In this document: positions 1 through 62,207 of the stretch, one piece after another
Numbering within the stretch: the stretch's first letter is position 1
How the letters are laid out: every line of letters begins with the position of its first letter
Virus record (IMG/VR): IMGVR_UViG_3300050343_000135
Coordinates: 1 to 64,000 of that record
From: a virus
Reading direction: 5' to 3' (one strand)
Length of the DNA: 64,000 nt
Notes under the pieces: generated by a model
The model's database searches: none
The model's input: only the letters and a program-made list of their open reading frames with translations
What the model was told of the DNA's origin: nothing
Program-made: the position numbers and the translations under genes

Positions 1-154
1 ACAGAATATTACAAATTTAGACCACGATATTGGCTCTATGGTTTTATGGCCTGCTTCAGTATCTCACCCACATGAGTGTACAGGACTTAATAATCAGGGA
101 ACTAAGTATAGCTTAACTCTATGGAGTTCTAGAGAAGAAGGAGATGTATATTGA
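1..154 (+). CDS. C-terminal fragment of 2OG-Fe(II) oxygenase (PLOD/lysyl-hydroxylase-like)
   Basis: Manual translation across an indel gives GSMVLWPASVSHPHECTGL..GTKYSLTLWS: distal His plus a basic 2OG-binding residue; TGA at 152-154. Confidence 0.55.
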   Translation, partial: QNITNLDHDIGSMVLWPASVSHPHECTGLNNQGTKYSLTLWSSREEGDVY

Positions 155-725
155 TTATTGTAGATGATTTTATAACAGATATGGATTTACTTGCTAAAAT
201 TAATAATAGCGAGGAATTTTGGGAGTTAGGATATAACTGGTACGATAAGGACGCTCCAATCAGTGCACTTCGGCACGAATTGATACATGCTATATGGGAT
301 CGCTTTGACAAGCCCGAATTTGTCGGGTATGAGCATTGGACGTTGGAAACTACTCTGCAGGAGATCGCAAAGAAGTCTAAAGACTATGATGGAAACTTTC
401 TACCATTTAAAAAGACACTTTGATAAAGACGAAGACTTATGGCACGACACAGGAGAAGTAGTCTCTCCTGCTGTTGGCACAATTTTTTACCCCTGTAAAG
501 AGAATGATGAGATTGAAGGTGGTAAACTTGATTGTTTGGAATACAAAAACAGAAGAAATTATTGATGATTATGAACTAATTGCTCCTAAATATAATCGGC
601 TTGTTATATTTGATGCAGGTCAGTTGCATGGTGTTCAAATGATAAAGAAAGGCACAAGAAAGGCAATCGCTATTAATCTGTGGGCTAAAGTACCGAAAAC
701 GTTTCAGCATGAAGATAAATCATAA
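151..725 (+). CDS. 2OG-Fe(II) oxygenase, split over three frames by indels
   Basis: Joined ORFs give HFDKDE (HxD), then NRLVIFDAGQLHGV...TRKAIAINLW. Confidence 0.75.
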
Positions 726-1309
726 AGATATACCCCACTATACATCCAAGAATTCCACATATATCTCTATCTAGCTTCATTTAAAGTATCTCTCTTATTA
801 TACTCCCAGTTTTCTCTGGGAGTACCTCTACTGACTCAAGCCCACATACATACGGAATCGTTCTTATTTCGTATTATCTTTGCAGTCGGGTGAAAACCCT
901 ATTCCTCCCATAGTAACTTTTGTAATCACTACGTCATCAATAAGGCTCTACTATGTGTAATCCTGAGTGACTATGAGTCATATTTGCTTCAAGCAATCGA
1001 AATTCATGTTTTACATGTGGTATTAACATATTTCATACATTACATTTCAGGTTTTGTACATTATCTTTACATGCTATCTTTTCCATACAGTACTCTGTAT
1101 ACTCATTTGTAATTGTATAGTCATATAGTTGTATTTTTATATCGAACCATAAACACTCTCGCAGTGTAAATCATCGTTGATGTGTGTGAATGTATATAGT
1201 TAGATATTGGTTGTGTAAGTTTTTTCGAGTAGAAGCTATATAATTCTCGAGGACTCTACTCGTGAGTCGTATACATCCTATTCCATGATAATAAGGATCT
1301 CGTATTTGC

Positions 1310-1867
1310 TAAATTTTTTAATTCATCTATGGTTATCATAGGCGTACTCAGGTGTTAAAGAAGTTGTCATAGAATCTATCACAGTGCTCTTATATCAAGT
1401 TTGTGGTATCGAATCATTTTAGCTCATAGCATATTTTATCATAGAACAAGTCTTCGTAGTACCATATTCTATCTGTGAGCAATACTTCCTCTAAAGCTTC
1501 TCGTGATATCTCATATACTTTTGCTCTAAGTCCTGGCTAATTTCAGGTAACTCGTCATCTAGTCGGGAGTATACTTATCTACAAAGTTTTTAGTGTGACA
1601 ACCTTGATTATAGCTTTTAAATCCTGCATCTACATCTTGTCTACTAATGTAAATAACTTTGTCATATTGCGCACTTATAATCTGTCCCCATTCTCTTTCT
1701 ATGGTGTACTAAGCTCTTTACTATATGTTCTCCTTGAAGGAAGCACATGATTCCACCTGCTCCAAGGCTCAAAATAAGAATGATATTCAAAGTAATTTGC
1801 TTGCAATTGCATTGTATAAAGCTGACGACCCTGAACGAGGAGTAGCAAGTATAAGTAGTTTTTTCAT
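1310..1867 (-). CDS. Sulfotransferase-family protein (frameshifted; 3' end approximate)
   Basis: ATG at 1867 reads MKKLLILATPRSGSSALYNAI, a PAPS-binding loop, followed by an FEPW motif. Confidence 0.55.
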
Positions 1868-2328
1868 AATAAGTCTTTTAGTAATATAGGCTGTGGCCAA
1901 TTTTGTGTTTTGTATTTACCATCTTTTCTAACAGATAGTTGTTTGATTTTATATAGAAAAGGAGCAATGTATTCAACTTCTCTTTGATCTTTATAAGAGT
2001 AATTTCTAAGTTTATATCTTATTATTTCTTCATCAAAAACATAAGAGTCGTCTGTGCACTCATTGAATCTATCTATGTGTTCAAAAAGTTTTGTATTTGG
2101 ATATATACAAATATCTAAAGGTATAGGAAATTGTTTATAGCATTCTATTTTTAATTCCCAAAGATCTAAAGCTAATTCAGGAGTCACTTCTCCTACAAAT
2201 TGTATATCTACATCAGGACTTTCATTCAAAATAAAGTTGCTCCACATATAAATTGTATGATTAGGGTAACGTTCTATTAAATTTTTTGACTTTAATAATT
2301 GTAAATAGTCAACTAAGACCTTTCTCAT
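1864..2328 (-). CDS. Hypothetical protein
   Basis: 154 aa ORF tightly coupled to both neighbours. Confidence 0.6.
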   Translation of the reverse strand: MRKVLVDYLQLLKSKNLIERYPNHTIYMWSNFILNESPDVDIQFVGEVTPELALDLWELKIECYKQFPIPLDICIYPNTKLFEHIDRFNECTDDSYVFDEEIIRYKLRNYSYKDQREVEYIAPFLYKIKQLSVRKDGKYKTQNWPQPILLKDLL

Positions 2329-2330
2329 TA

Positions 2331-3212
2331 TTAACTTCCGTCATCATCAAAACTTGAAGCTGATAATCTTGGATTACTACTACTTATATAGTTTTTTCTA
2401 ATATAATGATGGTCTGCGGTAGTTGCGTCGTCTGTATGTCTAAGTTCTATTCTTATATATCCACCTGAATTTAATCTCATTACAGTCTGACTTACTCCAC
2501 TAGTACTAGTTTCATTTGCTTTACAATAGACTTTTAAATTCAATAAGATATTTGGTATAGGATTCCAGTCTCTCCATGCAGTGGTAAAACTAGCATTGGT
2601 TTGGTCTCCACCTGTTCCAACATAACTTTGTTGAGACACAAAATTACTCACATTATAATACCCAAAATAAATAGCTTCATTTGAGTGCTCTGCAGTAAAA
2701 GTTACATTTAATCCACTAACAGCCCATCTCCATTGTAATCCATGGTCTGCATTTCTTACGGAGCTTGTTGAAGTGTCATAATAAGGATTGATAGTCATAG
2801 TCAAAGTATCATCAATAGCTCCATTAGTACCTAGAGATGGCCCGTCTGTATTATCCTTATAGAAAACATTAATTGTATTATTTGTCAAGGGTTGTAAAGC
2901 AATTTTAGTACCTGCATAGGCTTGACCACCACTTTCGTCATCCTGACTGTTTGTAAAATCATCTGTACCTGCCGTGTCATATCCAGGTGCCGAGGAATCA
3001 TCTGCCCCTCCAAATTCAAACTTAGTTGCACCATAGAAGTCTGAAAATGATATTGCAGTATTTGATGCTTTAGGGATATCTCTACCTGTTGCTTCTACTA
3101 AGTATCTAATTGAGTGGTCATTCATTTGACTTGTTTGACCTCCTGCAAAACTACTATTTCCTTCTACATATATGTCGTTAAGTGATATTGCTCCTGATGT
3201 TTGTAATGCCAT
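2331..3212 (-). CDS. Tail-fibre-associated virion protein
   Basis: N-terminal [14 protein letters not shown]...ISFSDFYG motif typical of genes following chaperone-bearing fibres. Confidence 0.65.
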   Translation of the reverse strand: MALQTSGAISLNDIYVEGNSSFAGGQTSQMNDHSIRYLVEATGRDIPKASNTAISFSDFYGATKFEFGGADDSSAPGYDTAGTDDFTNSQDDESGGQAYAGTKIALQPLTNNTINVFYKDNTDGPSLGTNGAIDDTLTMTINPYYDTSTSSVRNADHGLQWRWAVSGLNVTFTAEHSNEAIYFGYYNVSNFVSQQSYVGTGGDQTNASFTTAWRDWNPIPNILLNLKVYCKANETSTSGVSQTVMRLNSGGYIRIELRHTDDATTADHHYIRKNYISSSNPRLSASSFDDDGS

Positions 3213-6200
3213 TATTTATTCTCCACTAGCTTTTTAAGCTCTTCTATCTGTTCTTGTTGCTCTTTTATTGCTTCTACTAGTAGTCCTACCATACTTCCAT
3301 AAGAAACAGTTTTGATATCTTCATCTTTATTATACCCAATAACTTCAGGCAAGACTTTTTCGACTTCTTGAGCTATTACACCGGTATGTCTTTCATTATC
3401 TTCTATATCATTACGAGTAAAAGTTACTCCTCTTATTTGTTTTACTTTTTCAATAGCATTCTCAATAACTTTTACATCATCTTTTAGCTTTTTATCAGAG
3501 TAAGCTGTTATATTTGCTGTTGCAAGTATATTACCTGTTACATGCAGTGCTTCAGTTGGCTGAGAGCTTGATCCAATTCTAACTTTGCCGCCATTAGGTT
3601 GTAATAATAAATTATAATAAGTTGCAGTATTTGTTCTTTGTTGCTGTATATAACCATTACCATTAGTAATTGACCCAACAAACATTCCATAAGTAGTAAG
3701 GTCAGCACTAAAGATTGCTGCTCCACCTGCTCCTGCTCCTGCTGCTGGTACTGATGCAGATGCAGGGCCTAAGGCTTGTAATTTAGCTAATGGGTCAACA
3801 CTACTAAAGTTTCCGATTCCTACGTTATTATGATCAACAACAAAGCCATCTTGAGGTTTTGAAATACTTGTAGGTTCTCCATCATACCCAGTAGCAATAT
3901 GTATTCTACCATTTGAATTTTTAGCCCAAATGCGAAGTTCAGCATCTGCATCATCGTGTTGTCGTATACCAGTGTGCCAAGAGTCGTTTGACCCAAATAC
4001 TATTGAACCTTCATAGTTACCATTCTGCACGTTAATTTTAGGTGTTGTTATGTTTTTGTTGCCATCTATTACTGTTGTTGAGCCTATTTTATAGGCACCT
4101 GCTCTAAAATTACCATCAGCAGCAGGAATTCCAGTACTAGAATAACTACCATAGGCTAACTCACTACTTGCATTCATCCATAAAGAATTTGAAACCCTAC
4201 TACCCCAGTGAAAATTTAAATTAGGTCCATCTCTATCTTCGCCATCTCCTGCTCCTGCTAACCCTCTTTCACGAATAGATATAGGTGAGTTTACCCAGTC
4301 ATCTTGTGATGACATGCTACTATAGAAACTTGCCATACTAGTGCTTGTACCTGAGAAAGTTCCTGTTGCACCTGTTGCACCTTTTGAACCTGCTGCTCCT
4401 TTCTGACCTTTTGGACCTGCAACTGTACTTGCAGCACCTGTAGCACCTTTTGGACCTGCAACTGTACTTGCAGCACCTGTAGCACCTTTAGCACCTGTAG
4501 CTCCTTTAGCTCCTCCGCCACCTGTAGCTCCTTTAGCTCCTCCGGCTCCTGTATCTCCTTTAGCTCCTCCGGCTCCTACTTCACCTTTCTGACCTTTTGT
4601 AGAAGAACCGGTAGCTCCTTTAGCTCCTCCCGCTCCTACTTCACCTTTTTGTCCTTTAGGACCTGAAGAAGTATCAGCTGTTGTTAAAACTCTTAGCTGT
4701 GTTGTTTGACCTACATACATATCTCCAGTAGTTGCTATTCCCCCACTAATAATATTGTTTAAATCTATTTTTGCTGCTTCATTTGTTAAATTAGCAAAAT
4801 TTCCTACTGTACCCGGATTAGTAGCGCCTGCTATAAAATCTTTTAACACCCAACCTGCGGTATGAATATTATCGCCTAATAAAAATACTTTAAGAGTGTT
4901 ACTAGCATCATCAATATAAACCTGAAGAAGTGCTCCGTCATACGTGCCTCCTTCCATTATACGAATATATCTATAAGGTGTACCTGAGTATCTACCAGTA
5001 TGTAAAACGGTAAGTTCTGAGCTGTTGCCATAGTGATGCGAAGCATAAAAAATAGCACCTTGATGATCGCCGCTATTTTCGTCCATAATACCAAATCGAG
5101 CCATTGCTCTGTTTCCAGCATTCGCAGCAATAGTATACCATCCAACTCCCGCATTAGTTATTGCATGCTGTGTATGTGTATTATTTATAAAAGCTGAGCT
5201 ATCTATGCCATCTAATAATCCTGCATTACCGGCTTCATTACCTTTAGCACCTGTAGCTCCTTTAGCTCCTCCGGCTCCTGTAGCTCCTTTAGCACCAGCA
5301 CCACCTGTGGCTCCTTTAGCACCTGCGGCTCCTCCTGCTCCTTTCTGACCTTTTGGACCTGCAACTGTACTTGCAGCACCTGTAGCACCTTTTGGACCTG
5401 CAACTGTACTTGCAGCACCTGTAGCACCTTTAGCACCTGTAGCACCTTTAGCTCCTGTAGCTCCTTTTGGACCTGCGACTGTACTTGCAGCACCTGTAGG
5501 ACCTTTAGCACCTGTAGCTCCTTTTGGACCTGCGACTGTACTATTCGCACCTGTAGGACCTTTAGCTCCTGTTGGACCTGCTACTGTACTATCTGCTCCT
5601 GTAGCACCTTTAGCACCTGGAGCACCTTTCTGACCTTTTGGGCCTATACCACCTGAACCACCTACTCCACCTGTTGGACCTAGCTCACCTTTCTGACCTT
5701 TAGTTGCGGCACCAGTAGCTCCTTTAGCACCTGTAGCACCTTTAGCTCCTCCGCCCCCTGTATTTCCTATCTCACCTTTTTGACCTTTTGAACCTGTTCC
5801 ACCTGTACTACCTACTTCACCTTTAAGACCAGTACTTGGACCAACCCAAGTACCTGATGCATTGATAACTTACAGTTGTACCATATATATACTATTATTA
5901 TCTATTTGAACCTACTGTACCAAGCCAGTGCTAACTCTATTTGACCAAGTTGTATCGTTATTTGGGAAGGCATACATAATTACACCACCCTCTGCTCCTA
6001 GAAATACGGTTTCAGTTGCATTACTGATATTTGTATTCAGAACGCCACTTGTATCGCCAGCTGCAATAATGATGGCGTCATCATGACCAAGCGTAAGCGC
6101 TCCATTTGCAGTCATTCTTTGTAAAATTGCTTGGTTATCTACTTTCAGAATAGTTCCTGTGTCGGGAGTATAGTCTATCGATCCAGTTAATGTAAGTGTT

Positions 6201-6535
6201 CCTGAAAGTGACATATCAGCTAAGTTAGTAATATTATTACTATTCATATTCAAGTCTGTACCCATTCGAATATTACTATCTGATTGTCCAAGAGTTACAG
6301 TTACCCCTGTTAGCCCCCTTATTTCCCCTGCTTGTTCAAATACTATATCAACATTTGCTGTTCCGTCTCCTACAAAAATATCAGATGTAGTATCTCCTAT
6401 AGAAATATCTCCGCCCGCATTTGTTATTATTAGATTACCATTTGCATCGGTTTCAATTGTAGCGTCTATATTTGCTGATGAATCTTTAAAGTCAAGCTTC
6501 CTTGATCCAGGTGTTATTAATAAATCATTGCTCAT
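3212..6535 (-). CDS. Collagen-repeat tail fibre with C-terminal intramolecular chaperone (peptidase S74); indel(s) near 5870-5930
   Basis: Gly-X-Y blocks at ~4370-4665 and ~5240-5830; C-terminal SDKKLK...[13 protein letters not shown]...LLVEAIKE; the 3212-5104 frame stays open upstream to ~5870. Confidence 0.8.
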
Positions 6536-9027
6536 TTGAGTCTTCCTCCTAGTCTTGTTTTTCTTGCTGTAAAGCTATCTGCTTTTTTGACTGTTTCATT
6601 TGTTTGCATTATGTTTTTGGTTTGCATCGCAGTACTATGATATCTTTCATCTAATCTTGCTATTTGTTCTTTAATCCAAAATCCTTCCGCTGCATTTCTA
6701 TTAGTACTATAAACTCCCGCCATTACAGTAGAAGGCCATTCATAAGGGCCATATGTTAATTGTTGTTCTTCATAGTCAGTCTCTGCTGCTGAAGTATAAT
6801 TAGCTTGTAATCTTACACCTGTAAATCTGTGGTCTCCACTACTTTCTCCACTTGCCAATGCATTAGTTCTATTTGATACCGTAATATCTGCAATCCCTAA
6901 ACGTGGATATGTGCCACTAAAATCTGGATCAAGTTTTACTTTTGCCGAGTATCTTAGTGTAGTATTTGCAGGAACATAAATTGTATCTAAATATCCAGGG
7001 CTTTCATCACTATCATATCTTCTAAAAAATCTCCACGCTCCTTCATCATTATCATAAAAAGCTTCCCAACGATAACCATATTTTCTTACATGATCTACTT
7101 CAAAATTGTGCTCATTTACCGTTAAAACTCGACCCACTCCTTGGAACATATTGCCTCCTCTATACTGTCCATCTTGTGCAGTGCCTTTTGTTGTTGCATC
7201 ATTATATGGCTGTGGAAATCCACTTGGACTTCTAACTTCGCAATAAGATAATCCAGCATCACTAAATTCGGAGTTCAGTCCATATCTATGCCCAGTAAAT
7301 TTACACTTGTATATAGCCATAGGATTCCATGACATATGTACTAAGTTTAATCCATAATTATTGGCATCAGTTGTATTTGAATGAAAGCCTCTACCTCCAC
7401 CAGAATATGGTGCGTATAGTCTATACCCATAATTATTTCTTGATGTATGATTGTAAGCTACTTCCCAAAGATTATCCATACCCTCTAATCTCATTGCAAA
7501 ACTATCTTGACCATGGACTATATTATGATAAACTTTATACCCCGGCTCATAGTAAGTTGAAATCCCGTCGTCTCCATGTAAAACTGTACAGCATCTTGCT
7601 GCCGCGGATCTGCAATCATATAACCATAAAGGACCCCAGTCTCTTTCATGTGCATTATCTGGATAAATATGAATCGCAAGTCCTTCTACCCAAGTACCTG
7701 TTTTTCTATCTGGTATTGTTTCTGTAAGTGTAACGTCAATATTACCGCTATCATGAGAATTTAGTCCTCTCAAAACTACTCCAGTTCGAGTATTTGTGTT
7801 TCCATTTCCCCAATTCTTAAAGTATGCATCTTTAACAATACATGCTCTATTCCAGCTACTTGTATGCTCTACGTATAAGAATCCAAAATCTGTACCGGGT
7901 GTAAGACACTCAAACTTAACATCTCGTGTTAAACGAACTACTCTTACATTAGTTTTTACTGTGTAATCAACCGCTGCGTTTACTGTTATATTATTTCCAC
8001 TTATAGCACTAATAGTATGTAAAGTATGTTTATGGCTTGCGCTCCAATATCCTTGATAGTCTGTAGTTCCATCAGCTTCTGAAACTCTTTCAATATAGAT
8101 GTCGTCTCCTACTACAAACATACTAGAATCGAGAACAGAAATAGTAGTGCCAGTGCTTGATGTTTCTGCTGTAGTTAAAGTACAAACTTTTCTTACTTTA
8201 GAAGCAGTTACATGAGCTTTTTCTAGTCCGCCGAGATAAATAGTTTCTCCTACTTGATTTGCTTTATTCGTTATGTCTGCACTAAAAGTTATTTTGTTTT
8301 TATTATAATTAATGTTACTAATTGTTCTAAAGTTTCTATCTGACCCTGTGTTAAAAATTACTCGCTGATTGACGCGAAAGACTTTAGCATTATCGACAAA
8401 CACGGCATCATTTCCACTTGTCTTCGTAATTGTTGCTTCTGGACTTACATAGTGTCTAACATAAAGATTGCTACCTGAAATATCATGAATCCAGAATCCT
8501 TCATCATGGAATCCTTCAATTGGTGAAGCCCAGTCTGTACCACTATAAGTAGTTGTAATATCATATACTGCTATCTGTTCGCCTATAGCAAAGTCACTTG
8601 CACTTGATACAGGTAAATATTCGCCATTTACTACAGTAGCACTTGTTGTTGTTGTAGTAGGCATACCATCACTTCCTTCAATAATTAAATCTGCTCCTGC
8701 TTCATTATCTACTACTATGCCATGGTTATCTCCCTCTGCTCCTTTTACTTGTACTGTTAATCCCGCTCTTGCATGAAAAGTTCCACCACTTCCACGTACT
8801 CTTAACTCTCCATTTAGTCGAAAAGTCATTGTTGCATTAAGTTGACTTTGTAATATTCCACGAACAGTAATATTTCCCCAACCATTTGTCGGAGTTGCTA
8901 TTCCACTATCAATTGTTACAGTATGTCCTGCTGTAATTGTAAAAGTATCGCCGTCTGCAGGAGTTGAGCCTCCCCAAGTTGCTGAACTTGACCAGTTACC
9001 TGATTGTGATGAAGTTAGTGCTGCCAT
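6532..9027 (-). CDS. Large beta-rich virion/tailspike-like protein (G8/beta-helix-like)
   Basis: 831 aa; N-terminal SGNWSSSATWGG..PADGDTFTITAGHTVT motif; lies in the fibre cluster. Confidence 0.55.
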   Translation of the reverse strand: MAALTSSQSGNWSSSATWGGSTPADGDTFTITAGHTVTIDSGIATPTNGWGNITVRGILQSQLNATMTFRLNGELRVRGSGGTFHARAGLTVQVKGAEGDNHGIVVDNEAGADLIIEGSDGMPTTTTTSATVVNGEYLPVSSASDFAIGEQIAVYDITTTYSGTDWASPIEGFHDEGFWIHDISGSNLYVRHYVSPEATITKTSGNDAVFVDNAKVFRVNQRVIFNTGSDRNFRTISNINYNKNKITFSADITNKANQVGETIYLGGLEKAHVTASKVRKVCTLTTAETSSTGTTISVLDSSMFVVGDDIYIERVSEADGTTDYQGYWSASHKHTLHTISAISGNNITVNAAVDYTVKTNVRVVRLTRDVKFECLTPGTDFGFLYVEHTSSWNRACIVKDAYFKNWGNGNTNTRTGVVLRGLNSHDSGNIDVTLTETIPDRKTGTWVEGLAIHIYPDNAHERDWGPLWLYDCRSAAARCCTVLHGDDGISTYYEPGYKVYHNIVHGQDSFAMRLEGMDNLWEVAYNHTSRNNYGYRLYAPYSGGGRGFHSNTTDANNYGLNLVHMSWNPMAIYKCKFTGHRYGLNSEFSDAGLSYCEVRSPSGFPQPYNDATTKGTAQDGQYRGGNMFQGVGRVLTVNEHNFEVDHVRKYGYRWEAFYDNDEGAWRFFRRYDSDESPGYLDTIYVPANTTLRYSAKVKLDPDFSGTYPRLGIADITVSNRTNALASGESSGDHRFTGVRLQANYTSAAETDYEEQQLTYGPYEWPSTVMAGVYSTNRNAAEGFWIKEQIARLDERYHSTAMQTKNIMQTNETVKKADSFTARKTRLGGRLK

Positions 9028-36006: not shown

Positions 36007-37226
36007 TTATTCTTCCTCGCTTGGGGCAGCCTCTGTAGGTCTACCTCCTTGTTCTGGATTAGTAGCAGAGCCTGCTATATTTGCAGGTACTCTTGGCTCA
36101 TCAAATCCATCCACAGGTTCTTTTCCTAATGCTTCTCTAGCTTCGTTAGCACTTAATATGCCTGTATTGACTAAAGTAGCATAGTATGCTGCCTGGTCTC
36201 TCAATTCTGGTTGTAAAGCAGGAATCCCTGTTACATCTTCAGACATTGAAAATCCAAAAAATCTTTCTAAAGCATAACTAACTTTTTTAACTATTGGTAG
36301 TATAGTTTCTAAGTAGTATAATCTATGGTTAGGTCTTATGTTTGCGTTATTACCTCCATCCATTAAAATTGATGGTATTCCCATAGCTTCTAGTATAATT
36401 CTTTCATTTGACTTGATTCCTTCTTGAAAGTCTAACTCTTTAAAGTTAATTTCTGTCAAGTTTTCTACTTCAAGTCCGCCATCTAAAAATAGAGGTCTTC
36501 TACCTCCAGATTTAGGGTTATATCTTGCAACCCAGGCTTGTAACATTCTTTCTTTTATCTTTTCAGAAAGAGTGTTTGGTGATTTTTAGTACTAATCCTG
36601 GAACTGCTCCATTCTTAAAAAAGTTATCTTGGAAATCTCTCATGCTTCCTAGTAACTGCATAGTTCTGAAAGCTGGTTTTAATCTTGGTACTCCTCTGTA
36701 TATTGAGTTGAAACTATTTTCTTTTATATGTATAATTTCATCAGGACTGTAATCTATTGAGTTGTCATATGAGTATCTTTCTACGTAGGTTTTATCATCT
36801 GTGTAAATTCTTACTTTATCTGCAGGAAGATGATATAAATGTGCTCCATCAAAATAAATAAAGATGTTTCCATCTATAAGTAAATCAATTATAAGATTTC
36901 TTTTAAAAGCACTTACATCTTGAAAAGGGTTTGGCTCTTTGTTAATAAGTAAATCTACTTTTGACCTACGAATATTTTTTAAAACATTTGTAGTACCTAC
37001 TATCTTTTCTCCGACTAGCAAAAGGTATTTCTGAAACATCATCAACAATCATATTTACTGCTCTATTAACAATTTCTAGTTGTTCATAAGCATTTCTATA
37101 ATTGGTAACTACTTCACGAGAATCAATAGTCATACCCTCATTTCGGGATATTACATACTGAGCAGGATTAAGTTTTTCCTCATCTACTATGGGAGCTCTA
37201 CCTAATAATCTATCATACCATGCCAT
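36007..37226 (-). CDS. Portal protein (three fragments)
   Basis: EPNPFQD..FKRNLIIDLLIDGN, NFFKNGAVPG, GGNNANIRPN, GILSANEARE. Confidence 0.9.
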
Positions 37227-52397: not shown

Positions 52398-52548
52398 GGT
52401 GAATTTTTATACAGCGTGAGCGCTTTAGCGCCGACAAGTAGTAGTATTATTATTATTTTTGTAGCCGCAGGCGCCAAAGTAGTAGTATTACTATGATGAG
52501 TAGTCTTTCTGCGACCGCCGCCGCGAATTTGGATTAGTTCCTAAGTCT

Positions 52549-52641
52549 ATTATACCACAGCGCCCGGTAAATGTCAAGAGAAACGCAGAAATTAATTTTC
52601 TTTCACAAATCCCTTGACATTTCCAATTGGCGCTGTATAAT
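52549..52641. promoter_or_regulatory. Back-to-back sigma70 promoters
   Basis: - strand TTGACA-N17-TATAAT 52577-52549; + strand TTGACA-N16-TATAAT 52614-52641. Confidence 0.7.
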
Positions 52642-52672
52642 AGTATACATAATAAAGACAAAGGAGAACATT

Positions 52673-52834
52673 ATGAAAAACGAAAAAACAGAAAAAGCAA
52701 AAAGACCAAACAAAAAATACTTGCTAAAAGAAATTAGCGAACTATCTGGCAAAAGAATCGCTGAGTTAGACTCACTAGGCAGAAGCAACATTGAAACAAT
52801 CGTCTGGATTCGCGACATGGTCAAAGGAGCGTAA
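52673..52834 (+). CDS. Small basic protein
   Basis: SD AAGGAG then MKNEKTEKAKRPNKKYLLKEISEL; own promoter. Confidence 0.6.
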   Translation: MKNEKTEKAKRPNKKYLLKEISELSGKRIAELDSLGRSNIETIVWIRDMVKGA

Positions 52835-53369
52835 GCAACTCTATAACTCACTGCTAGACGCAACCTGCTATTGGCACGCAGGTCGCATCGCGCCGATTTT
52901 ACCACACCTAAACTCGCATGTCAATACTTATGCGAAATTATTTTTGCCTAAAATTTCCCGGGCTAGTCTTCCCTATACCTAAAGCATTTCCCCAAGAGTG
53001 AGTACTCACTATCATCGCACGTCAGCAAAAAGGGATTCGCACCAATCGGGCGTTGCTTTATCCAGGGCGGCGCCGTAAGTGCGAAAACTAAGTACAAAAG
53101 TGATACTCCTGCGCCAAATTAAGTGCAAAATCTAAGTACTAGGTCTACTTGTGCGAGTTAGCGGCCGTCGCGAGACTAGTATAAGTCTTATTTATATTTT
53201 ATCAGACTTTGGAAGCTTGTCAAGACTTATGCGAAGGTTTGCACCGATTTTGCGAGAAAGATTGTGCCAGTTTCGCGTCCGGCCCCCGAGAGTTCGCTAG
53301 CGTTAATTTATGAGGAATTTCTTTCGCAAATCTATTGACAATCTTATCAGGCTTCTATATAATATATGT

Positions 53370-53538
53370 ATCTTTTGAGGGAAATGAGAAAAACCGAACA
53401 CAGAGGCTAACTATTAACAGTTAGAGAGAGTATAGGTGAGTCGCTTCAGGGGGGTGTCCAAGCATGCTAGGGGATATTAGAAATGCAAAAACGAACAAGA
53501 GCTTGGCCCGATTCATTTCCACCAAAAGACCTATACTA
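53370..53538 (+). ncRNA. ~170-nt structured RNA with pseudoknot
   Basis: Promoter TTGACA-N17-TATAAT 53335-53363; the 5' end pairs with the 3' end; extra 9-bp pairing 53429-37 with 53529-37. Confidence 0.6.
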
Positions 53539-53650
53539 AGGTATGGTTGCGAAAGGAGAACACGCAAAACATAAAAAACTCCTTGACAAAACCTTATCCG
53601 CAGTATATAATAGTATTATAAAAACAAACAAAAAGAATAAGGAGAACATT

Positions 53651-53977
53651 ATGGCATCAGCTAAAAATTACACAGAAGAAATGGTAGCTTCAATGACAGA
53701 AGCATACAAAGCCAATCCTACAAGAGAAACAGTAGATGGCTTAGCAAGAGAATTTGGCAAGACTACAAGAAGTATCATTGCTAAACTTTCAAGAGAAGGC
53801 GTATATGTTGCTCAACCAAGAACAACTAAATCTGGTGAAGCAATAGTAGCTAAATCTGAGTTGGTTTCTGAAGTTGCTACTATTCTAGGTGTGCAGGTTG
53901 AGGACATAGCATCTCTAGAAAAAGCAACAAAAGTCCACCTCAAAGAACTGGTGACAAGACTATCCCAAGTAGTCTAG
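53651..53977 (+). CDS. T5 A2-like DNA-binding protein
   Basis: NYTEEM..LAREFGKTTRSIIAKLSREGVY..SLEKATK; promoter 53583-53611; SD AAGGAG. Confidence 0.7.
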   Translation: MASAKNYTEEMVASMTEAYKANPTRETVDGLAREFGKTTRSIIAKLSREGVYVAQPRTTKSGEAIVAKSELVSEVATILGVQVEDIASLEKATKVHLKELVTRLSQVV

Positions 53978-54046
53978 TTGCGAACTCTGAGAACCTCGTG
54001 AAAAATAACACTTGACACGAGGTTACCGCCAGAGTATAATATATTT

Positions 54047-54198
54047 ATAAAATTAAGAAACAGTAGAGAAGTGATAAAAGTAGGCTGACCCCCTCATTGT
54101 CACTTGGTTAAAGTGAACCTACTCTAGCTACTAAACATACCCTATCAAGTAGCAGATAGTATTTAACGGGAAAGTGGTGGGATTAAATACTGTTTTTT
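54047..54198 (+). ncRNA. Structured RNA/leader with alternative terminator-like pairing
   Basis: Promoter 54012-54040; helices AGTAGG/CCTACT, TCACTT/AAGTGA, GCTACT/AGTAGC, AGTATTTAA/TTAAATACT plus T-run; no ORF. Confidence 0.5.
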
Positions 54199-54315
54199 AG
54201 CTAGATAACTCTAGCGTGGTAAGTGTCTACGGAAGCACGCACAAAAGTGAAGTAGCAAGTTCGACTCTTGCACCACCTAGTAAAAGTTAGTACCAATCTA
54301 ACATCTAGCTAAAAA
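54194..54315 (+). ncRNA. tRNA-like RNA lacking a normal anticodon arm
   Basis: GTGGT/ACCAC stem, D-arm GTGT-CTACGGAA-GCAC, mini-arm CAC-AAAA-GTG, T-arm GCAAG-TTCGACT-CTTGC, outer 13-bp helix. Confidence 0.65.
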
Positions 54316-54382
54316 CCAGTTAAGTAGTAAATAAGTTAAAAATTTACTTGACACAAGGTTAAAAACGTAGTATAATATATAT

Positions 54383-55378
54383 TACAAAAAGGGGAAAAGT
54401 AGTTGGAAACAGGAAAAAATAAATGATTGAGCTTCGGCCAATAAATAATCCTCCAACAACTTGACCGAGTGAGGCGTCACATAAAACACTGCCGGATGCT
54501 CTTTAGACATAGATGAGATTCACGTTAAATGTAAAAATGTCCGCTTTTGATAGTCGTTATGAGACATACCTTCCGCAGCAAGGAGAGAGTCATAACCGCA
54601 TGAACTGATGCGTAAATATTTGAGTGGATACTTCCAATAAGTCCCCTGAGTACATAGTACGATTGCGAAGGACTCCAAAGTAGGGTGAGTAGCGACTAAC
54701 ACAACGGCAATAAGCAAAGCAGCAACGAAGCAAGAACAGTTCGGCACTTTATCGAAAGTATAAAATCGATTTGTTTTACTGCATTAATGGGCGTTACGAC
54801 CTTCGGGTTTACTAAATGCAGAGGTAATTGTAAGCACAGGATATAGCCAAAATATCGGTGTAGAGTGAGGAAACCACGCTGTTCCTATCCCACGCCTCAA
54901 CCGTTTCGGTAGCAGGAGTGTAGGGCAAGGACGAGAAGAAAACCAGTCTACTGCGACACGGGCGGACTAGATATTTATATCATAGCAACCAGTCAATAGT
55001 AGCAAACTCGGGCAAGGGAAAGGATGATGTTTCCTAGCCGCAGACTGCGAGAGCGAGGTGTCTTCGGGACGGGGGCAGTAGGCAACTAATTAAGAAGTGC
55101 AGACTTGGAACACTATAAAAGCTAAGCAGCAAGAAGAACGGCAGTCGCTCTGTCAACTACTGAATAGTAGATATCTTAGTCAATAGCATTTGGACTTAAA
55201 ACAGTGCATAGTAGATAAGTGATGTGAAATAAGCAGTGCACCTTCGATTGAAGTTTGTAATATCCATCACCTCTAGCTACGCAGTGGACAGGTTCGTGAG
55301 TAATTCCAACACGACCACTTTAAAATAAACTTACGTTCGGAGTTTAAATAGGCAGTTGAGATACTGCCTATTTTTTTG
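54383..55378 (+). ncRNA. ~1-kb highly structured non-coding RNA
   Basis: Promoter 54348-54376 and terminator 55349-55378 bracket a region with no + strand ORF of 60 aa or more, many UUCG/GNRA hairpins and long-range helices. Confidence 0.75.
55349..55378 (+). terminator. Intrinsic terminator
   Basis: ATAGGCAGT/ACTGCCTAT stem followed by a T-run. Confidence 0.85.
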
Positions 55379-55479
55379 TTTCGTAGAACTATATCTCAAA
55401 ATTTTAAGGTCTTAAAAAATAGTTCTTGACAGACAACTTATTTCTCTGTATAATATATGTATATAAAAAGGAGACAAAG

Positions 55480-55824
55480 ATGGATTTATGGACAACAATC
55501 AAACACTTAGAAAAGGAACACAATTGCATAATATATGGCATACTTGAACCACAAGGTGTAGCAGAAGATTTATCTAGCTGGAGTAGTTTTGATGCTGAGG
55601 AGCGAACAGAAGATTTCATAATGGACTCTTACGACATTCCAACGCAGTTAATGCTTGAAGCATTTGAGAACGCATATAACAATGTAAGTTCCGAGTACGA
55701 CAACTACAACACTATGCTAGAAGTAGTAGGCGATTACATAGTCGCAAAGTTAAAAGCAAAGCAGTGTGTATGTGGCGCAGTAGAATGCCCAGACGAGTAC
55801 GCACACACAACGAGTGGGGTGTAA
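55480..55824 (+). CDS. Hypothetical acidic early protein
   Basis: Promoter 55426-55454; SD AAGGAG; C-terminal CVCG..CPDEYAH motif. Confidence 0.65.
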   Translation: MDLWTTIKHLEKEHNCIIYGILEPQGVAEDLSSWSSFDAEERTEDFIMDSYDIPTQLMLEAFENAYNNVSSEYDNYNTMLEVVGDYIVAKLKAKQCVCGAVECPDEYAHTTSGV

Positions 55825-56113
55825 GATGGCAGACAAATTTACTAAGGGAGTCATGGGCGACCACAGTGCAAAAGTGATGCCTTTCCCCACCATTGACAGA
55901 GTCTCTTTTTATAGGAGCATATGGATAGAAGTATGACAGCAATAGCAGAGTTAAATGTGCAGTTGCAACAAGTACAAGACATGCTATTCAATGAAGTAGT
56001 AGAGTTCGAGACATGCGTTGTTGAGTTACAAAACGAAATACAACGCTTGGAACGACTACTAAAAAATGAACAAACAATAAACAAGATAGGTAAAGACACA
56101 TAGGAGGTGCAAC

Positions 56114-56335
56114 ATGCCAGTAAAATTTAAACCAAGTGCAAAGAAATACGTTAGAGGCGTACCGGCAAGTAAATTGCCAATGGAACACTTCTACATGCAC
56201 ACAATGAAAAAAGAAGAGCTATTTGAGTACATAAACGACAAAGGCCAAAACATGAAACCTAAAGTAAGACAGAAGTGCGTAAACGAACTTCAGCGTAGAG
56301 GTATCAAAATAGAATGGGTGGAGGTGCAGTCATGA
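56114..56335 (+). CDS. Hypothetical protein
   Basis: SD GGAGG; 73 aa; KPKVRQKCVNELQRRGIKI. Confidence 0.6.
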   Translation: MPVKFKPSAKKYVRGVPASKLPMEHFYMHTMKKEELFEYINDKGQNMKPKVRQKCVNELQRRGIKIEWVEVQS

Positions 56336-56464
56336 GATGGAGTGGTAAAGCGAAACATAAATCGCACAAAAAGAAAACTGCACAAGGTGATTCACATGGC
56401 AGAGTTAGCTTAAATATGAACAAAAACAAGAAGCGTAGCTTCAAGAAATACAGGGGCAAGGCAG

Positions 56465-56865
56465 ATGATAAATGATTATGCGAAATTTGTAGACAAATGT
56501 ACCTCCGCTGAGAGTAGAGAAACGAGTGCTTTTCAGCAGAGAATAACAGCACTAAGCGTGATGCATCCTGATGTAGATTGGAGTAGATTAATGACTTCAG
56601 CTATAGGAATGTTAGCAGAAAGTGGAGAATTTACCGAGATTATGAAAAAAATATTTTTTCAAGGTAAAGAAATGAGTGAAGGCAACAGATATCATATGAA
56701 GCGTGAGCTAGGTGATGTACTGTGGTACTGGATTCAAGGTTGTATTGCATCTAGGTTATACGCCTGAAGAAGTAATGAAAGAAAACATAGCAAAGCTAGA
56801 GAAGAGATATCCGAATGGCTTTGAACAGATTCGTAGTGAAGTGCGAGAAGAAGGAGATATCTAGT
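56465..56865 (+). CDS. mazG: MazG-like NTP pyrophosphohydrolase (frameshift near 56750)
   Basis: GMLAESGEFTEIMKK..KRELGDVLWY; the other frame continues ENIAKLEKRYPNGF. Confidence 0.85.
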
Positions 56866-57083
56866 GGAAATGATAGAAAATTTATTAGCGGGTATTGGAT
56901 TAATAACAGTAGTAGTAGGCATATTATTTGTCTGCGTATTTTGGGAGAACAGATAATGGCGAAAAAGAAAAATAATTTTGAAACAGAGCTAAGCAAGTAC
57001 AAACACAGCTTAGAGCTTGTGAGAACAGTAGTGCCTATATTAGTACTAATTCTACAAGTGTTTATTCTAGGGAGGATTATATA

Positions 57084-57717
57084 ATGGCAAATCATGTATA
57101 TTTTACAATAAGTGTAGAAGGTCTATCAGACGAACAATGGGATGAAGGAGTCAAGGTAGGGTAAAGGGAACTAGGAACGATTACGATGGAAACCCATACG
57201 AGTACGAAGATTGGGACTATATAGAGAACCAACCATTCATGGCAAGTGTAAAGAAAACATTTGATAAAGATGGAGAACTAGAAAACTCATACGACTGGTA
57301 CTGTAATAATGTAGGTGCTAAGTGGTGTAACATAGAAGAAATGGATAGCTGCTTTATAACTGGTTATTCAGCTTGGAGACAACCTATAGAACTAGTAGCA
57401 AATCTAATTGAATGGTATTCAAACGAGTTTGATACCGAAGTAAGTGCAATTATGACTTATGAAGATGAGTTCAGAAACTTCCTAGGAAAGCAGTACTTTG
57501 CAGTAGAACACAATAACCTACAGTGGACTGCATATGAAGGAGAAACCTATGAAACTGATGGAGATGAGCTAGTAGAAGAATTCAATGAGAGATTCCCTGA
57601 CATAGACACAACGCAGAAGACTTTGACTGGTTTGAAGAAGTAAAGACTGGTGGCGATATAATATATCCTCATGAAGTGCTAGATGAAATTGTAGACGATT
57701 TCTGGAGTAAGGCATGA
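57084..57717 (+). CDS. DUF1281/Api92-like protein (frameshifted)
   Basis: MANHVY start; YDWYCNNVGAKW, SAWRQP, YEDEF motifs. Confidence 0.55.
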
Positions 57718-57959: not shown

Positions 57960-58258
57960 ACTACAGTAAGGAAATAACAGCGGATATAGTAAAAAGATAT
58001 AGGGACGCTCCAAACCGCCAAACAGTTGCGATTCTCGCAAAAGAACTTGGCAAGAGTGAGAAGTCCGTTATAGGAAAACTAAGCAAGGAAGGAGTATATA
58101 AACGAAGTGTTTATGTAACGAAAGCTGGAGAAAAGCCAGTAACAAAAGCACAACTAGTGCAAGAATTAGAGGAGAAGTTAGATGCGAACTTGGAAGGGCT
58201 AGAGAAAGCTCCGAAAGAGACTCTACGCTCCTTAGTGGAGGCAATATGCGAAGAATAG
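57956..58258 (+). CDS. Second A2-like paralogue
   Basis: NYSKE..LAKELGKSEKSVIGKLSKEGVY..GLEKAPK aligns by eye to 53651-53977. Confidence 0.7.
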   Translation: MNYSKEITADIVKRYRDAPNRQTVAILAKELGKSEKSVIGKLSKEGVYKRSVYVTKAGEKPVTKAQLVQELEEKLDANLEGLEKAPKETLRSLVEAICEE

Positions 58259-58514
58259 TAATGACACCAAAAGGTCTAGGAATGTGTGATAGACAGGAGT
58301 TTCGAATGCATGGGGATTTAATGTACCTAAAGGTTACGCTAAAGACTGGGAAAGTGTAGAATATTTGAACACTGAAGTAAGATTTCTAGATATGGAAGTA
58401 GAAGTTGAGGAAATAAAAAGACGTAAAAGATTAGATGCAATTACGGGAAAGATTAATGAAAAATTTTGAATTGGGCGAAGTCTTTAGATAATTAAGACGC
58501 AGTTTTAGACAGAC

Positions 58515-58706
58515 ATCAAAGACCGATTAGCTTTTAGTCGGTCTTTTTCGTTGTTTGAATTAGATTGTATTTTCTCTCTCGACCTTTCACTCAGTTCATC
58601 TCAGGTCTCTTCTTCGCTTACGCTCGAAGAGCCTTGTTTTAAGATAATCGGAGTAGGTCTCGATTAGGAGAGAGAAGAATGAATTGAGTAATTATTCTAA
58701 TTTATA
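58515..58706 (-). ncRNA. Candidate ~190-nt small RNA
   Basis: Promoter TTGCAA-N17-TAAAAT 58741-58713; multibranch helices; ends at the bidirectional terminator AAAGACCGA/TCGGTCTTT (58518-58546). Confidence 0.5.
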
Positions 58707-58786
58707 GTATATATTTTATCACACTTTTATCAAGATTGCAAGTTTTATTTTTGGTAGGGTCATTATAGCTACTTTCTGGGAACGTC

Positions 58787-59014
58787 TTATCTCCGAGAAA
58801 ATTTATTTCTCTTACGATAGTCAGATGAGATTTGATTGAGAGATTTAAGATGTCTCTTCCTCTGCTCGTTTTTCTTACGTTTGCGTTTCACTGTTGGTTT
58901 CTCATAGAATTCGAGTTCGCGACAGCGTTCTTTGATTTGAGCGGCCTCACATTTCTTACGAAAAATACGAATTGCCTTTTCTGTTGGCATGTTTTTACAG
59001 TATATACTAGGCAT
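58787..59014 (-). CDS. rpsU: Ribosomal protein bS21
   Basis: EKAIRIFRKKCEAA..CRELEFYEKPTVKRKRK. Confidence 0.9.
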   Translation of the reverse strand: MPSIYCKNMPTEKAIRIFRKKCEAAQIKERCRELEFYEKPTVKRKRKKNEQRKRHLKSLNQISSDYRKRNKFSRR

Positions 59015-59179
59015 GCGCTCTCCTGTTATTGAAAGTCCAGCCTCTCTTTCGTAAGTAATGTATCTGCGAATAGAGTTGACTCTCAGTAACCTGAAGTTTC
59101 TTGCAAATGTCTGTGCGTCGAATTACCTTGTAGTTTCCTTTAAATACTGCTTATCTTCTTGAGTCCATCTTTTGTTCAT
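59001..59179 (-). CDS. Small HTH/Myb-like protein (frameshifted), predicted leaderless
   Basis: MNKRWTQEDKQY..ICKKLQVTESQLYSQIHYLRKRGW; promoter 59214-59186 ends 7 nt before the ATG. Confidence 0.55.
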
Positions 59180-59297
59180 ATCCATATTATACTAAAAATA
59201 GAACCTGTTGTCAAGTATTATTTTTGACCATGTTAAATATAGTACTTGACCTCGCGTTAGAAAAGTTGTATAATATATACATAAAAAAGGAAACACT

Positions 59298-59444
59298 ATG
59301 AACAATAATGATTTAGCAGTACTGATATGGTTATTACTATCAAATGTGGGAACTTACTTTTTCTGTAAGTACCATTTTATACGACATACCATAGATGTTC
59401 TCGAAGATAAAGGGCTACTAATCCTCGAAGATGATGAAAAATAA
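59298..59444 (+). CDS. Small membrane protein
   Basis: 48 aa with one TM segment; promoter TTGACC-N17-TATAAT 59246-59274. Confidence 0.55.
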   Translation: MNNNDLAVLIWLLLSNVGTYFFCKYHFIRHTIDVLEDKGLLILEDDEK

Positions 59445-59645
59445 TTCTTGACATCAACTTCCAAATTTAGTATAATATATCAGTAGTTAGATTTATTCTA
59501 GCTATGGGATATGGGATGGTATAGTTCAATCAATAAAACAGGTTCTTTCTGCATCTTTGAACATTCAGTTTTAGAACTAGGGAATTAATGCTACCGAAAG
59601 GGGCAAACTTAACCAAGATGCAAGCTTACTGAAAAGGAGACAACA

Positions 59646-60040
59646 ATGACAATAGACAATATCTATTAAAGCACTTTCTCGGCTTTGACGAGAGATTTTT
59701 TAACCCCGTTGACGATACAGCGTATCCTCGACACAATATAGTAACACGCGGTGATGACTACTTTCGTATTGAAATGGCGTTGCCAGGCTGGATTAAGGAG
59801 AACATTGAAGTAACTTTGGAGAACAGGCAACTGACTATCCAAGGAAATACTAAACTAGAGTGTGGAGAAGAGGAATCTTACTTACACAAAGGCATAAGTG
59901 GAAAAGTGTTTAAAAGAACTTTCTCTCTTGGCGAATTTATAAACGTCAATGAGGTAGAGTTTGAAAACGGCTTGCTAAGCATAGAATTAGAGAAGGTCAT
60001 ACCAGATGAGAAGAAACCAAAGGTATTTGACATAAAATGA
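59646..60040 (+). CDS. Small heat-shock protein Hsp20/IbpA (early indel)
   Basis: FLGFD, YPRHNIV, IEMALPG, YLHKGIS..FKRTFSL, FENGLLSIELEK..PDEKKPK; promoter 59448-59476. Confidence 0.9.
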
Positions 60041-61578: not shown

Positions 61579-61755
61579 ATGTTAGAATTCTTTCAATGGG
61601 TGCAAGCCCTAATCGCAATTGTGCCAACCATAGTGTTGGTTGCATCTGCAGTAGCGGCATTAACACCTACACCACTCGACGATGGGTGGATGAAAAAAAT
61701 CTATGTTGTATTAGATTGGTGCGCACTTAATGTGGGCAGAGCAAAGGATAAGTAA
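61579..61755 (+). CDS. Holin-like small membrane protein
   Basis: SD AAGGAG; hydrophobic IVPTIVLVASAVAALTPTPLDD; lies in the lysis cassette. Confidence 0.45.
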   Translation: MLEFFQWVQALIAIVPTIVLVASAVAALTPTPLDDGWMKKIYVVLDWCALNVGRAKDK

Positions 61756-62207
61756 TGTCAGAAGCAGTAGACAATAGAAACGAGGTAAACATTGACCTCG
61801 AGAAATATATGTCACTTGTCGAGAAACTCGACGGCGCAGAAGACACTATATCCGCTCTCAAAACAGAAGCTGAAGCAGCAAGAAAGCAACTTGCTCCACC
61901 AAAAAGAAAGCTTATGGACTTGTTCTTAGATGACAATGACATAAACGAAAAGTCTATTATTGGCTTTATGTCTTTCTTTTTAATGTTCGTATTCGGAACC
62001 TGTGATTTAATTACAGCGTTTTGGGGCATGGACTTACAGATTAGTGATACTATCTACACTTCGTTTGTAGTTGTAACACTAGGAGCATTTGGTATCTCGG
62101 AAGCAGGAAAAGCCTTCGGAAATAATTATCTCACCAGTTGGAAGTCGAGCTTACTCTTAGTTCGACTTTCACCTTTTACAATCCCTACTAAATATAAACC
62201 TCACTAA
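61755..62207 (+). CDS. Membrane protein (coiled coil plus 2 TM); C-terminus possibly extended by an indel
   Basis: DDNDINEKSIIGF..LGAFGISEAGKAF. Confidence 0.55.
   Translation: MSEAVDNRNEVNIDLEKYMSLVEKLDGAEDTISALKTEAEAARKQLAPPKRKLMDLFLDDNDINEKSIIGFMSFFLMFVFGTCDLITAFWGMDLQISDTIYTSFVVVTLGAFGISEAGKAFGNNYLTSWKSSLLLVRLSPFTIPTKYKPH

Follow-up and report, generated by a model that had tools for sequence, protein, structure and literature searches.

A large structured RNA, probably trans-acting, encoded by marine T5-like phages

A transcription unit among small phage genes

The DNA analysed here (hereafter the window) comprises 64,000 nucleotides (nt), positions 1 to 64,000 of IMG/VR record IMGVR_UViG_3300050343_000135. 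The contig that carries it is linear, 74,214 bp long and ~75% complete. On its + strand the window holds a block of small genes with many consensus promoters, among them genes for MazG-like, Hsp20, endolysin, Rz-like spanin, holin-like and D5-like or helicase proteins. Within this block, a unit of about 1 kb (54348-55378) runs from a sigma-70 promoter to an intrinsic terminator. The RNA gene itself, counted from where transcription is expected to begin through the terminator U-tract, measures ~990 nt on the + strand (54383-55378) and was delimited by the lack of an open reading frame (ORF), covariation and metatranscriptome depth. In our judgement it very likely encodes a trans-acting structured non-coding RNA, the founding member of a family outside Rfam 15. 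A sequence-only reading of the window had proposed a large, structured, independently transcribed phage RNA at this place. Three lines of evidence support the proposal: the 72 homologues covary, nothing indicates coding, and cover in metatranscriptomes is restricted to the unit.

The promoter, TTGACA-N17-TATAAT at 54348-54376 (+), is as perfect as that reading had stated, matching the consensus at 12 of 12 positions. The terminator occupies 55346-55378 (+); its 11-bp G+C-rich stem (55346-55373) is followed by a T run to ~55380, which bears out the strong terminator previously placed at 55349-55378. A fresh consensus promoter (55426-55454) lies between this terminator and the downstream gene. 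Local G+C is 0.44-0.47 over the RNA unit, compared with ~0.35 in its surroundings. The stretch 54348-55378 is a self-contained, autonomous transcription unit.

The first relative, viral contig L004, was found with an exact 35-mer and is ~90% identical. It differs from the window by indels of 10, 7, 30, 2 and 1 nt and by one compensatory change, which together gave the first hint of a non-coding RNA. Two conserved words of the RNA fetched 23 and 12 viral contigs, and a conserved 19-mer used as a search word on metagenome contigs retrieved 115 stretches, all of them marine and including Tara samples. The total spread of the RNA amounts to these 115 metagenome stretches and ~30 viral contigs, all marine. 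The homologue set analysed below consists of 84 complete promoter-to-terminator units, 72 of them distinct, with lengths of 861-1219 nt and identities to the window of 53-94%. The RNA is, therefore, kept in at least 72 distinct variants on marine viral and metagenome contigs, with common flanking genes. The 84 units were picked by a consensus-type promoter on each side, so the presence of the upstream promoter in the homologues holds by construction. All 84 end in their own terminator, and at least four different stem sequences occur at the same place, each with complementarity kept and followed by T7.

Between promoter and terminator, the longest + strand ORF measures 31 amino acids (aa), in agreement with the earlier claim that none reaches 60 aa. 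All six frames are closed under four codes, including those that assign sense to TGA, TAG or TAA, and each + frame of the unit contains 22-27 stops. Across the homologues, the longest + strand ORF varies from 26 to 109 aa and shows no conservation. Codon-type conservation, named beforehand as the sign of an indel-broken coding sequence, was looked for and not found: a 3-nt periodicity of column variability is absent (overall p = 0.60, with no significant 150-nt window), and 17.6% of 2554 pairwise indels are divisible by three. The unit 54383-55378 is non-coding, and its product presumably acts as RNA, without a peptide.

Part of the stretch is contained in marine sequencing runs from 16 studies, among them six RNA libraries. 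Logan contigs of four metatranscriptomes, from four studies, were placed on 52500-57500 at a likeness of at least 85%; parts of the window without metatranscriptome cover were not counted as silent. Summed word depth per bin over 54337-55338 was 75-1954, 164-2479, 1.5-43 and 5-6723 in the four runs, with lower values in the 3' bins, whereas flank depth was 0-53. In the bin after 55339, depth fell to 0 in three of the four runs and to ~2 in the fourth. Single contigs reached depths of 100-965 within the RNA and 2-20 outside it. The cover sought by way of a check is, thus, far deeper over the RNA than over the neighbouring genes and confined to 54337-55338. One cDNA contig, from run X17, carries a template-switch oligo tail, GTGGTATCAACGCAGAGTACGGG, directly before 54391 and places the 5' end of the RNA at 54388-54394 (+), with an ambiguity of a few bases owing to the genomic GGGG at 54391-94. 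Position 54391 is 15 nt past the -10 box. This contig may represent a truncated cDNA, and the true start of the RNA lies at 54391 or upstream. Early expression is suggested solely by the promoter, a sigma-70 consensus, and by a location among genes of early type; host RNA polymerase would presumably transcribe the RNA upon entry of the DNA. Its accumulation may reflect the stability of a compact fold.

Covariation and architecture of the RNA

Covariation was sought in the 72 distinct homologues and found. The consensus structure computed with RNAalifold has 162 pairs in 31 helices, and 92.8% of its cells are paired, compared with 37-48% when partners are slid by 1-3 columns and ~80% when partners are shuffled. 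Compensatory changes, altering both sides of a pair, affect 97 of the 162 pairs (44-51 with slid and 72 +/- 3 with shuffled partners), and the covariation score is 0.324, against 0.06-0.07 and 0.133 +/- 0.003, respectively. Mutual information with average product correction, computed without any folding, gave top column pairs that are nearly all Watson-Crick compatible (in 96-100% of sequences), show three to five pair types and form antiparallel ladders. An independent count used the covariance model of a 161-nt subdomain, aligned to 71 matches that yield 60 distinct rows. There, 99.6% of cells are paired, double changes occur in 20 of 23 pairs, and the covariation score is 0.667, compared with 0.21 for shuffled partners (none of 500 as high) and at most 0.116 for slid ones. 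G.U accounts for 9.2% of cells and A.C for 1.6%; this six-to-one excess points to an RNA of the + strand, a figure that leans to that strand because the structure was predicted on it.

The fold consists of ~30 helices and at least one tertiary pair. Its core, 5' and central, is conserved (54465-54885 and 55016-55083), whereas the hairpins at the periphery are variable and optional. The individual hairpins picked out by the sequence-only reading all lay where they had been put, or within 2 nt, and most of them have comparative support. This is not the case for the long-range helix it had proposed between TGAGGCGT (54470-77) and ACGCCTCA (54892-99). Its 8-bp complementarity is real in the window, yet peculiar to the window and its nearest relatives; in the homologues, the best complement to 54470-77 has no fixed position and matches no better than one taken from shuffled sequence. 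Bases 54469-72 form instead a strongly covarying local hairpin at 54469-54480 (+), of the form G-NNN-GGCR-NNN-C, in which they pair with 54477-80 around a conserved GGCR loop. Three of its four pairs covary, pairing is 100%, and the pair types are nearly balanced (UA:33/AU:27, GC:45/CG:15 and AU:32/UA:27).

Upstream of this hairpin stands P1 (54397-54462, +), a long hairpin of 10 + 2 bp with nine of ten pairs covarying and a tip of variable length that contains GC-TTCG-GC; insertions in the tip reach ~45 nt in homologues. Downstream, RNAalifold places a central multi-helix domain at 54491-54745 (+) in the 72 sequences. Its closing helix (54491-94/54742-45) shows no covariation itself; the domain is supported by the inner long-range helices 54618-20/54738-41 (four of four pairs covarying) and 54631-35/54714-19 (four of five), which are among the top mutual-information pairs. 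The domain includes a 14-bp hairpin (54556-54596, +) made of GTTATGA/TCATAAC, in which seven of seven pairs covary, and an inner CCTT/AAGG; over its whole length, 11 of 14 pairs covary, with up to three pair types, and helices 3 and 4 of the 161-nt count are 98-99.5% paired. The adjoining 5-bp hairpin GCAT/ATGC (54597-54612, +) is paired in 100% of sequences and has all five pairs changed on both sides. A subdomain at 54624-54731 (+) varies in length and sequence from homologue to homologue; over 54659-54696, gaps make up more than 50% of the alignment of the 72 sequences.

Two small hairpins follow at 54746-54778 (+), where covariation identifies a tertiary Watson-Crick link. The pair 54749:54756 occurs in four types, and the tertiary pair 54751:54766, which joins a loop base to a bulge base, is Watson-Crick in 100% of sequences, occurs in four types and ranks third by mutual information. 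Next comes the hairpin TGCATT/AATGCA with its cap ACC-TTCG-GGT (54779-54821, +). Both elements covary, with nine of ten outer pairs doing so and CG:30/GC:24 at the inner pair 54800:54807. The hairpin at 54834-54861 (+) has a covarying base, with five of seven pairs covarying and GC:38/CG:31 at 54835:54860. The core then reaches the strongly conserved 19-mer AGAGTGAGGAAACCACGCT (54862-54880, +), recognised by sequence identity and predicted to form a small hairpin. The first alignment comprised 15 viral-contig homologues, and the 19-mer is identical in all of them; some had been found by a pattern containing it, and homologues found solely with a different pattern carry it too. Among the metagenome sequences, its invariance holds by construction, as it served as the later search word.

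The region 54881-55015 (+) is variable and poorly alignable, and contains CCCACGC and GGGCAAG, the halves of a recurrent module. As a 22-nt mini-module, AGTAGTAGGGCAAGTCCCACGC, this element appears at quite different positions in ~18 units, once in a terminator loop (for example, the terminator loop of L099, and L096 and L098). In other units, the halves GGGCAAG and CCCACGC are separated by an insert of 50-70 nt, and in the window (54885-54930) they stand in reverse order. The mini-module AGTAGTAGGGCAAGTCCCACGC looks like a portable structural or docking element.

Conservation resumes at 55016-55083 (+) with a hairpin (55016-34, five of six pairs covarying) and a helix (55040-48/55075-83, five of nine); GGGGCAG at 55072-78 is at least 97% conserved. 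The 3' part (55096-55290, +) consists of optional modules, namely the hairpins 55096-114 and 55140-54, CTACT-GAAT-AGTAG and 55219-70, which covary where present and are missing in 10-50% or more of the homologues. A conserved 3' hairpin at 55291-55316 (+), with five of seven pairs covarying, precedes the terminator. GGA motifs of the CsrA type number ~18 per kb, counted by eye, which is near chance.

Phage, neighbouring genes and adjacent units

The tail tube protein of the window phage is ~33% identical to its counterparts in Demerecviridae, the T5-like phages of Vibrio, Aeromonas, Salmonella and E. coli, and the T5-like assignment made from the sequence is, thereby, borne out. The host may be a proteobacterium, judging from the sigma-70 promoters of consensus type and from ribosome sites reading AAGGAG. 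When the conserved 19-mer was searched for in 185,579 representative prokaryote genomes, six matches came up, all by chance and without further homology; they gave neither a clue to the host nor a prophage copy. No similar DNA was found in 50,697 cultured phage records (blastn, distant mode). Cultured T5-like phages have many tRNA genes. ARAGORN detected no tRNA gene in the whole 74-kb genome of this phage, and no tmRNA in window or genome; as ~25% of this T5-like genome (G000, 74,214 bp) is missing, the absence of tRNA genes is inconclusive.

Upstream of the RNA, a DNA-binding-like protein is encoded in 62 of 72 loci, and downstream a 73-aa protein (56114-56335) in 55 of 72 and a 114-aa protein in 17 of 72. 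The upstream protein probably starts at 53652 and has 108 aa, rather than corresponding to the listed 144-aa ORF (53543-53977), because a promoter (53583-53611) lies inside the longer ORF and a Shine-Dalgarno-preceded ATG is present at 53652. Pfam returned nothing for it and PHROGs gave only weak DNA-binding matches. An 'A2-like' label was tried for this protein and dropped, since tblastn against cultured phages gave no match. All four flanking proteins also occur in L024, which has a divergent copy of the RNA, and the complete contig G002 encodes a homologue of the upstream protein without having the RNA core. Given these occurrences and the counts of flanking proteins, the idea of a conserved protein partner was rejected, as no specific link to the RNA emerged.

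The divergent copy in L024 (2480-3300, corresponding to G003:C1 around 36852-37014) is a shorter member of ~750 nt, with its own promoter and terminator. It sits in the same synteny, and the otherwise invariant 19-mer is altered in it. The family is, thus, wider than the analysed set. In L004, the RNA unit directly follows a holin-like gene, the counterpart of window 61755-62207. The join (L004:1840-1910) falls at a shared 9-nt core, AGTTCGACT, present in the window at 62137-62170 and 54250-54276; at one site it is the 3' arm of the terminator hairpin of the holin-like gene and at the other the T-loop-like element. The gene order of L004 reflects either recombination, in which case the RNA unit would be a cassette able to move, or a chimera produced by assembly; other close relatives, L011 and L012, do not show it. 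The holin-like protein has 305 relatives in IMG/VR. Its ORF at 61755-62207 encodes 150 aa in the window, compared with ~122 aa in most relatives; a 1-nt difference (GGAAAATAA vs GGAAATAAT) removes the usual stop, and the extension crosses a terminator hairpin (62145-62170).

The surroundings of the RNA had been described as gene-dense, which is true of the region in part: 52835-55480 contains several short promoter-driven units without ORFs. Immediately upstream, the unit 54012-54340 has a perfect promoter (54012-54040), no ORF and no recognisable terminator. It contains a tRNA-like T arm and acceptor strand, GCAAG-TTCGACT-CTTGC-ACCACC, at 54253-54282, and is not called a tRNA by ARAGORN or Rfam. 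A 50-nt piece of it (54221-54270) is ~90% conserved upstream of the big RNA in ~20 loci, and in L178 (1561-1635) an intact tRNA-Glu(UUC) occupies the place of the tRNA-like element. Further upstream, at 53335-53651, a perfect promoter (53335-53363) is followed by ~270 ORF-free nt up to the promoter at 53583-53611, and this stretch may be another small RNA. The preceding 500 nt (52835-53335) are also ORF-free, with a raised G+C of 0.43-0.46 and two promoter-like sites on the - strand (52924 and 53223). Other ORF-poor gaps of 0.5-1 kb are found at 565-1595, 58258-58787 and 59014-59774, the last with divergent perfect promoters at 59214 (-) and at 59246 and 59448 (+).

Interpretation and comparison with known RNAs

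What is expected of an independent gene for a structured non-coding RNA was found at this locus: a promoter and a terminator, covariation, a lack of coding signal and a transcript. We are highly confident that the RNA is real, discrete, abundant and compactly folded. Several observations, nevertheless, weigh against this interpretation. The single sequence of the RNA shows no advantage in folding energy over shuffled versions (z = -0.48 on the + strand and -0.66 on the - strand), so that this sequence by itself is no proof of structure. The 5' end comes from a single contig of an oligo-dT, SMART-type library. The depths derive from assembled contigs of runs chosen for holding the stretch, and indicate levels, ends and strand rather than measure them; at 85% likeness, the conserved parts also gather contigs from many related phages. 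As part of the homologues was fished with the exact 19-mer, the set is biased to close relatives and that block seems invariant. The RNA core is absent from the complete related contig G002 (104 kb) and from two cultured Demerecviridae, which makes the RNA accessory and dispensable for the lineage. The tRNA adjacency typical of GOLLD and ROOL is missing, and a search for covarying palindromic loops, which in GOLLD and OLE mark symmetric intermolecular kissing, returned only the invariant UCGA, UUAA and UAUA.

A decayed or frameshifted protein gene, or a small-peptide coder conserved at the protein level, could be argued from recurring short ORFs in the unit, one of ~78 aa on the - strand in 39 of 72 loci and one of ~57 aa on the + strand in 37 of 72, and from an SD-like AGGA 8 nt ahead of an ATG at 54424. 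These ORFs are absent or broken in about half of the homologues, however, and the ATG at 54424 meets a stop after two codons in most of them. Together with the missing codon periodicity, the preponderance of indels that are not multiples of three and substitutions that compensate across helices, this makes a coding origin barely credible. Alternatively, the function might reside in the DNA itself: within a T5-like genome, the stretch could, for example, be a site where injection stops or pauses, an origin or a hot spot of recombination, with its inverted repeats forming cruciforms. In phage T5, a non-coding, repeat-rich region at which injection stops adjoins the pre-early genes, and the present stretch belongs to the early portion of its T5-like genome; in L004, moreover, the unit stands at a different place, joined at the 9-nt shared core. 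A function as DNA, on the other hand, would not account for a promoter and a terminator in every homologue, a tolerance of G.U six times that of A.C, as in a one-strand RNA, a covarying tertiary loop-bulge pair, or metatranscriptomes that are deep over the RNA and not over its flanks. Neither direct repeats nor DnaA-box arrays were seen in the sequence, and we regard this explanation as extremely unlikely.

Granting a real RNA, it could still be cis-acting or a precursor: it might serve the downstream gene as a long leader, give rise to small RNAs or be processed jointly with the upstream tRNA-like unit. The upstream unit 54012-54340, with its tRNA-like T arm at the end and no recognisable terminator, the true tRNA-Glu of L178 and the uneven metatranscriptome depth, higher in the 5' half, would fit such a role. 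Against it, the strong terminator and the fresh promoter at 55426-55454 part the RNA from the downstream gene, which itself varies among homologues (the 114-aa protein in 17 of 72 loci); covariation extends over the whole length, as expected of a molecule working whole; and the uneven depth is explained by conserved parts gathering contigs of many relatives. We consider a cis-acting or precursor role improbable. Membership of a known class, as a divergent GOLLD, ROOL, OLE, HEARO or raiA RNA, or as an RNase P RNA, a tmRNA or a group I/II intron, is less probable still. Size, phage origin, an ornate multi-helix build and abundance do recall GOLLD and ROOL as described in the literature, and GAGGAAA within the 19-mer is reminiscent of the start of the CR-I block of RNase P. 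The assignment of GAGGAAA and ACAG...GCUAAG to CR-I and CR-V was, nonetheless, rejected, as the sequence offers no P4-type pairing partner for the 19-mer and no model matches. With cmscan, none of the 4227 models of Rfam 15 reached its gathering score anywhere in the window; at E <=10 over 53900-55500, solely four chance small-RNA matches appeared, at the terminator or in the upstream unit, and at E <=5 nothing consistent emerged in 14 homologue loci. The GOLLD, ROOL, OLE, HEARO, RNase P, tmRNA and group I/II models, in particular, matched neither the window nor those 14 loci, and the absence of tRNA adjacency adds to the case against GOLLD or ROOL. No description of the RNA was found in Rfam 15 or in the searchable literature. 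Where the sequence-only reading had left the choice between a divergent member and a new class of giant phage RNA, it is the new class that is supported. Its analogy with RNAs near tRNA loci fails, with no tRNA in the genome and one near the RNA in 1 of 142 loci.

The trans-acting structured RNA, which we favour, would be made by host RNA polymerase from the consensus promoter as the DNA enters, and its compact fold would render it stable and let it accumulate. The likeliest role, proposed tentatively and by analogy, is that of a self-folded, perhaps self-assembling RNA particle of the GOLLD/ROOL type that would serve the phage in host takeover by binding or enclosing a host component. The likeness invoked here draws on the conserved core with a variable periphery, the tertiary covariation, the abundance, the phage origin and the lack of a linked protein; the missing tRNA neighbourhood and the lack of a covarying palindromic loop argue against simply carrying the GOLLD/ROOL picture over. 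As targets, an RNA-binding protein, a nuclease or a defence sensor would come next in likelihood and would make the RNA a decoy; a decoy or sponge for a host protein is a slightly less likely role than the particle. That it is a ribozyme seems doubtful, and a sizeable remainder of the probability falls to other modes of action. A bolder conjecture, which we again advance with reserve, is that it represents a new class of self-assembling RNA particles or a large ribozyme, made in bulk immediately upon infection by a marine phage lineage of global distribution, that might capture, enclose or process a host component, such as a nuclease, defence sensor or translation factor, in the course of host takeover, with the mini-module AGUAGUAGGGCAAGUCCCACGC, whose position within the RNA shifts, as a docking or assembly element.

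Among known systems, the RNA is a new family within an established kind, the large ornate phage RNAs. GOLLD and ROOL, both shown to build RNA-only cages, have in common with it features that it displays as T5-like phage origin, a length of ~990 nt, 31 helices and no conserved ORF. GOLLD (RF01998) is likewise phage-encoded, very large (above 800 nt in many members) and multi-helical; one part of it is conserved and another variable, and it has neither a known function nor a known protein partner. It differs in that its covariance model finds no match here and in occurring in Lactobacillales and lake phages, whereas the present RNA belongs to marine T5-like phages and is not beside tRNA genes; the latter also has no covarying palindromic loop, which does not exclude assembly. 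ROOL (RF03087) is a complexly folded RNA of phages or prophages that can reach high abundance without being essential; protein-free action has been proposed for it, and its RNA-only cage is known. Its model does not match either, and its length is ~580-660 nt compared with ~1 kb. The present RNA lacks a neighbouring tRNA island, differs in habitat and host range, and comes with a promoter and a terminator of its own wherever it occurs. Candidate structured RNAs mined from IMG/VR by Fremin et al. 2023 (PMC10690425) are similar in coming from IMG/VR intergenic regions and in their covariation evidence; their models span 29-151 nt, and a 1-kb multi-domain RNA is not described among them. Single hairpins of the present RNA might be among those models.

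OLE and raiA are also large, highly structured and abundant, with cores defined by covariation before their function. They are, however, chromosomal genes of Firmicutes and Actinobacteria, and OLE has known protein partners, whereas the present RNA comes from a lytic-type phage and the 185,579 prokaryote genomes contain no match beyond chance 19-mers. Outside ribosomal RNA and self-splicing introns, we know of very few RNA classes of ~1 kb with a conserved intricate fold, and those described earlier (RNase P, GOLLD, ROOL, OLE and raiA) each opened structural or biochemical ground. To these, the present RNA adds an example with unusually clean comparative support (~97 covarying pairs in 72 variants), a simple transcription unit with a consensus E. 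coli-type promoter and direct evidence of being made in the ocean. Its uncultured lineage is present in the seawater of many studies, and the RNA may, therefore, rank among the more abundant phage-made RNAs in the sea. It is a concrete, clonable object with which to ask what giant phage RNAs are for.

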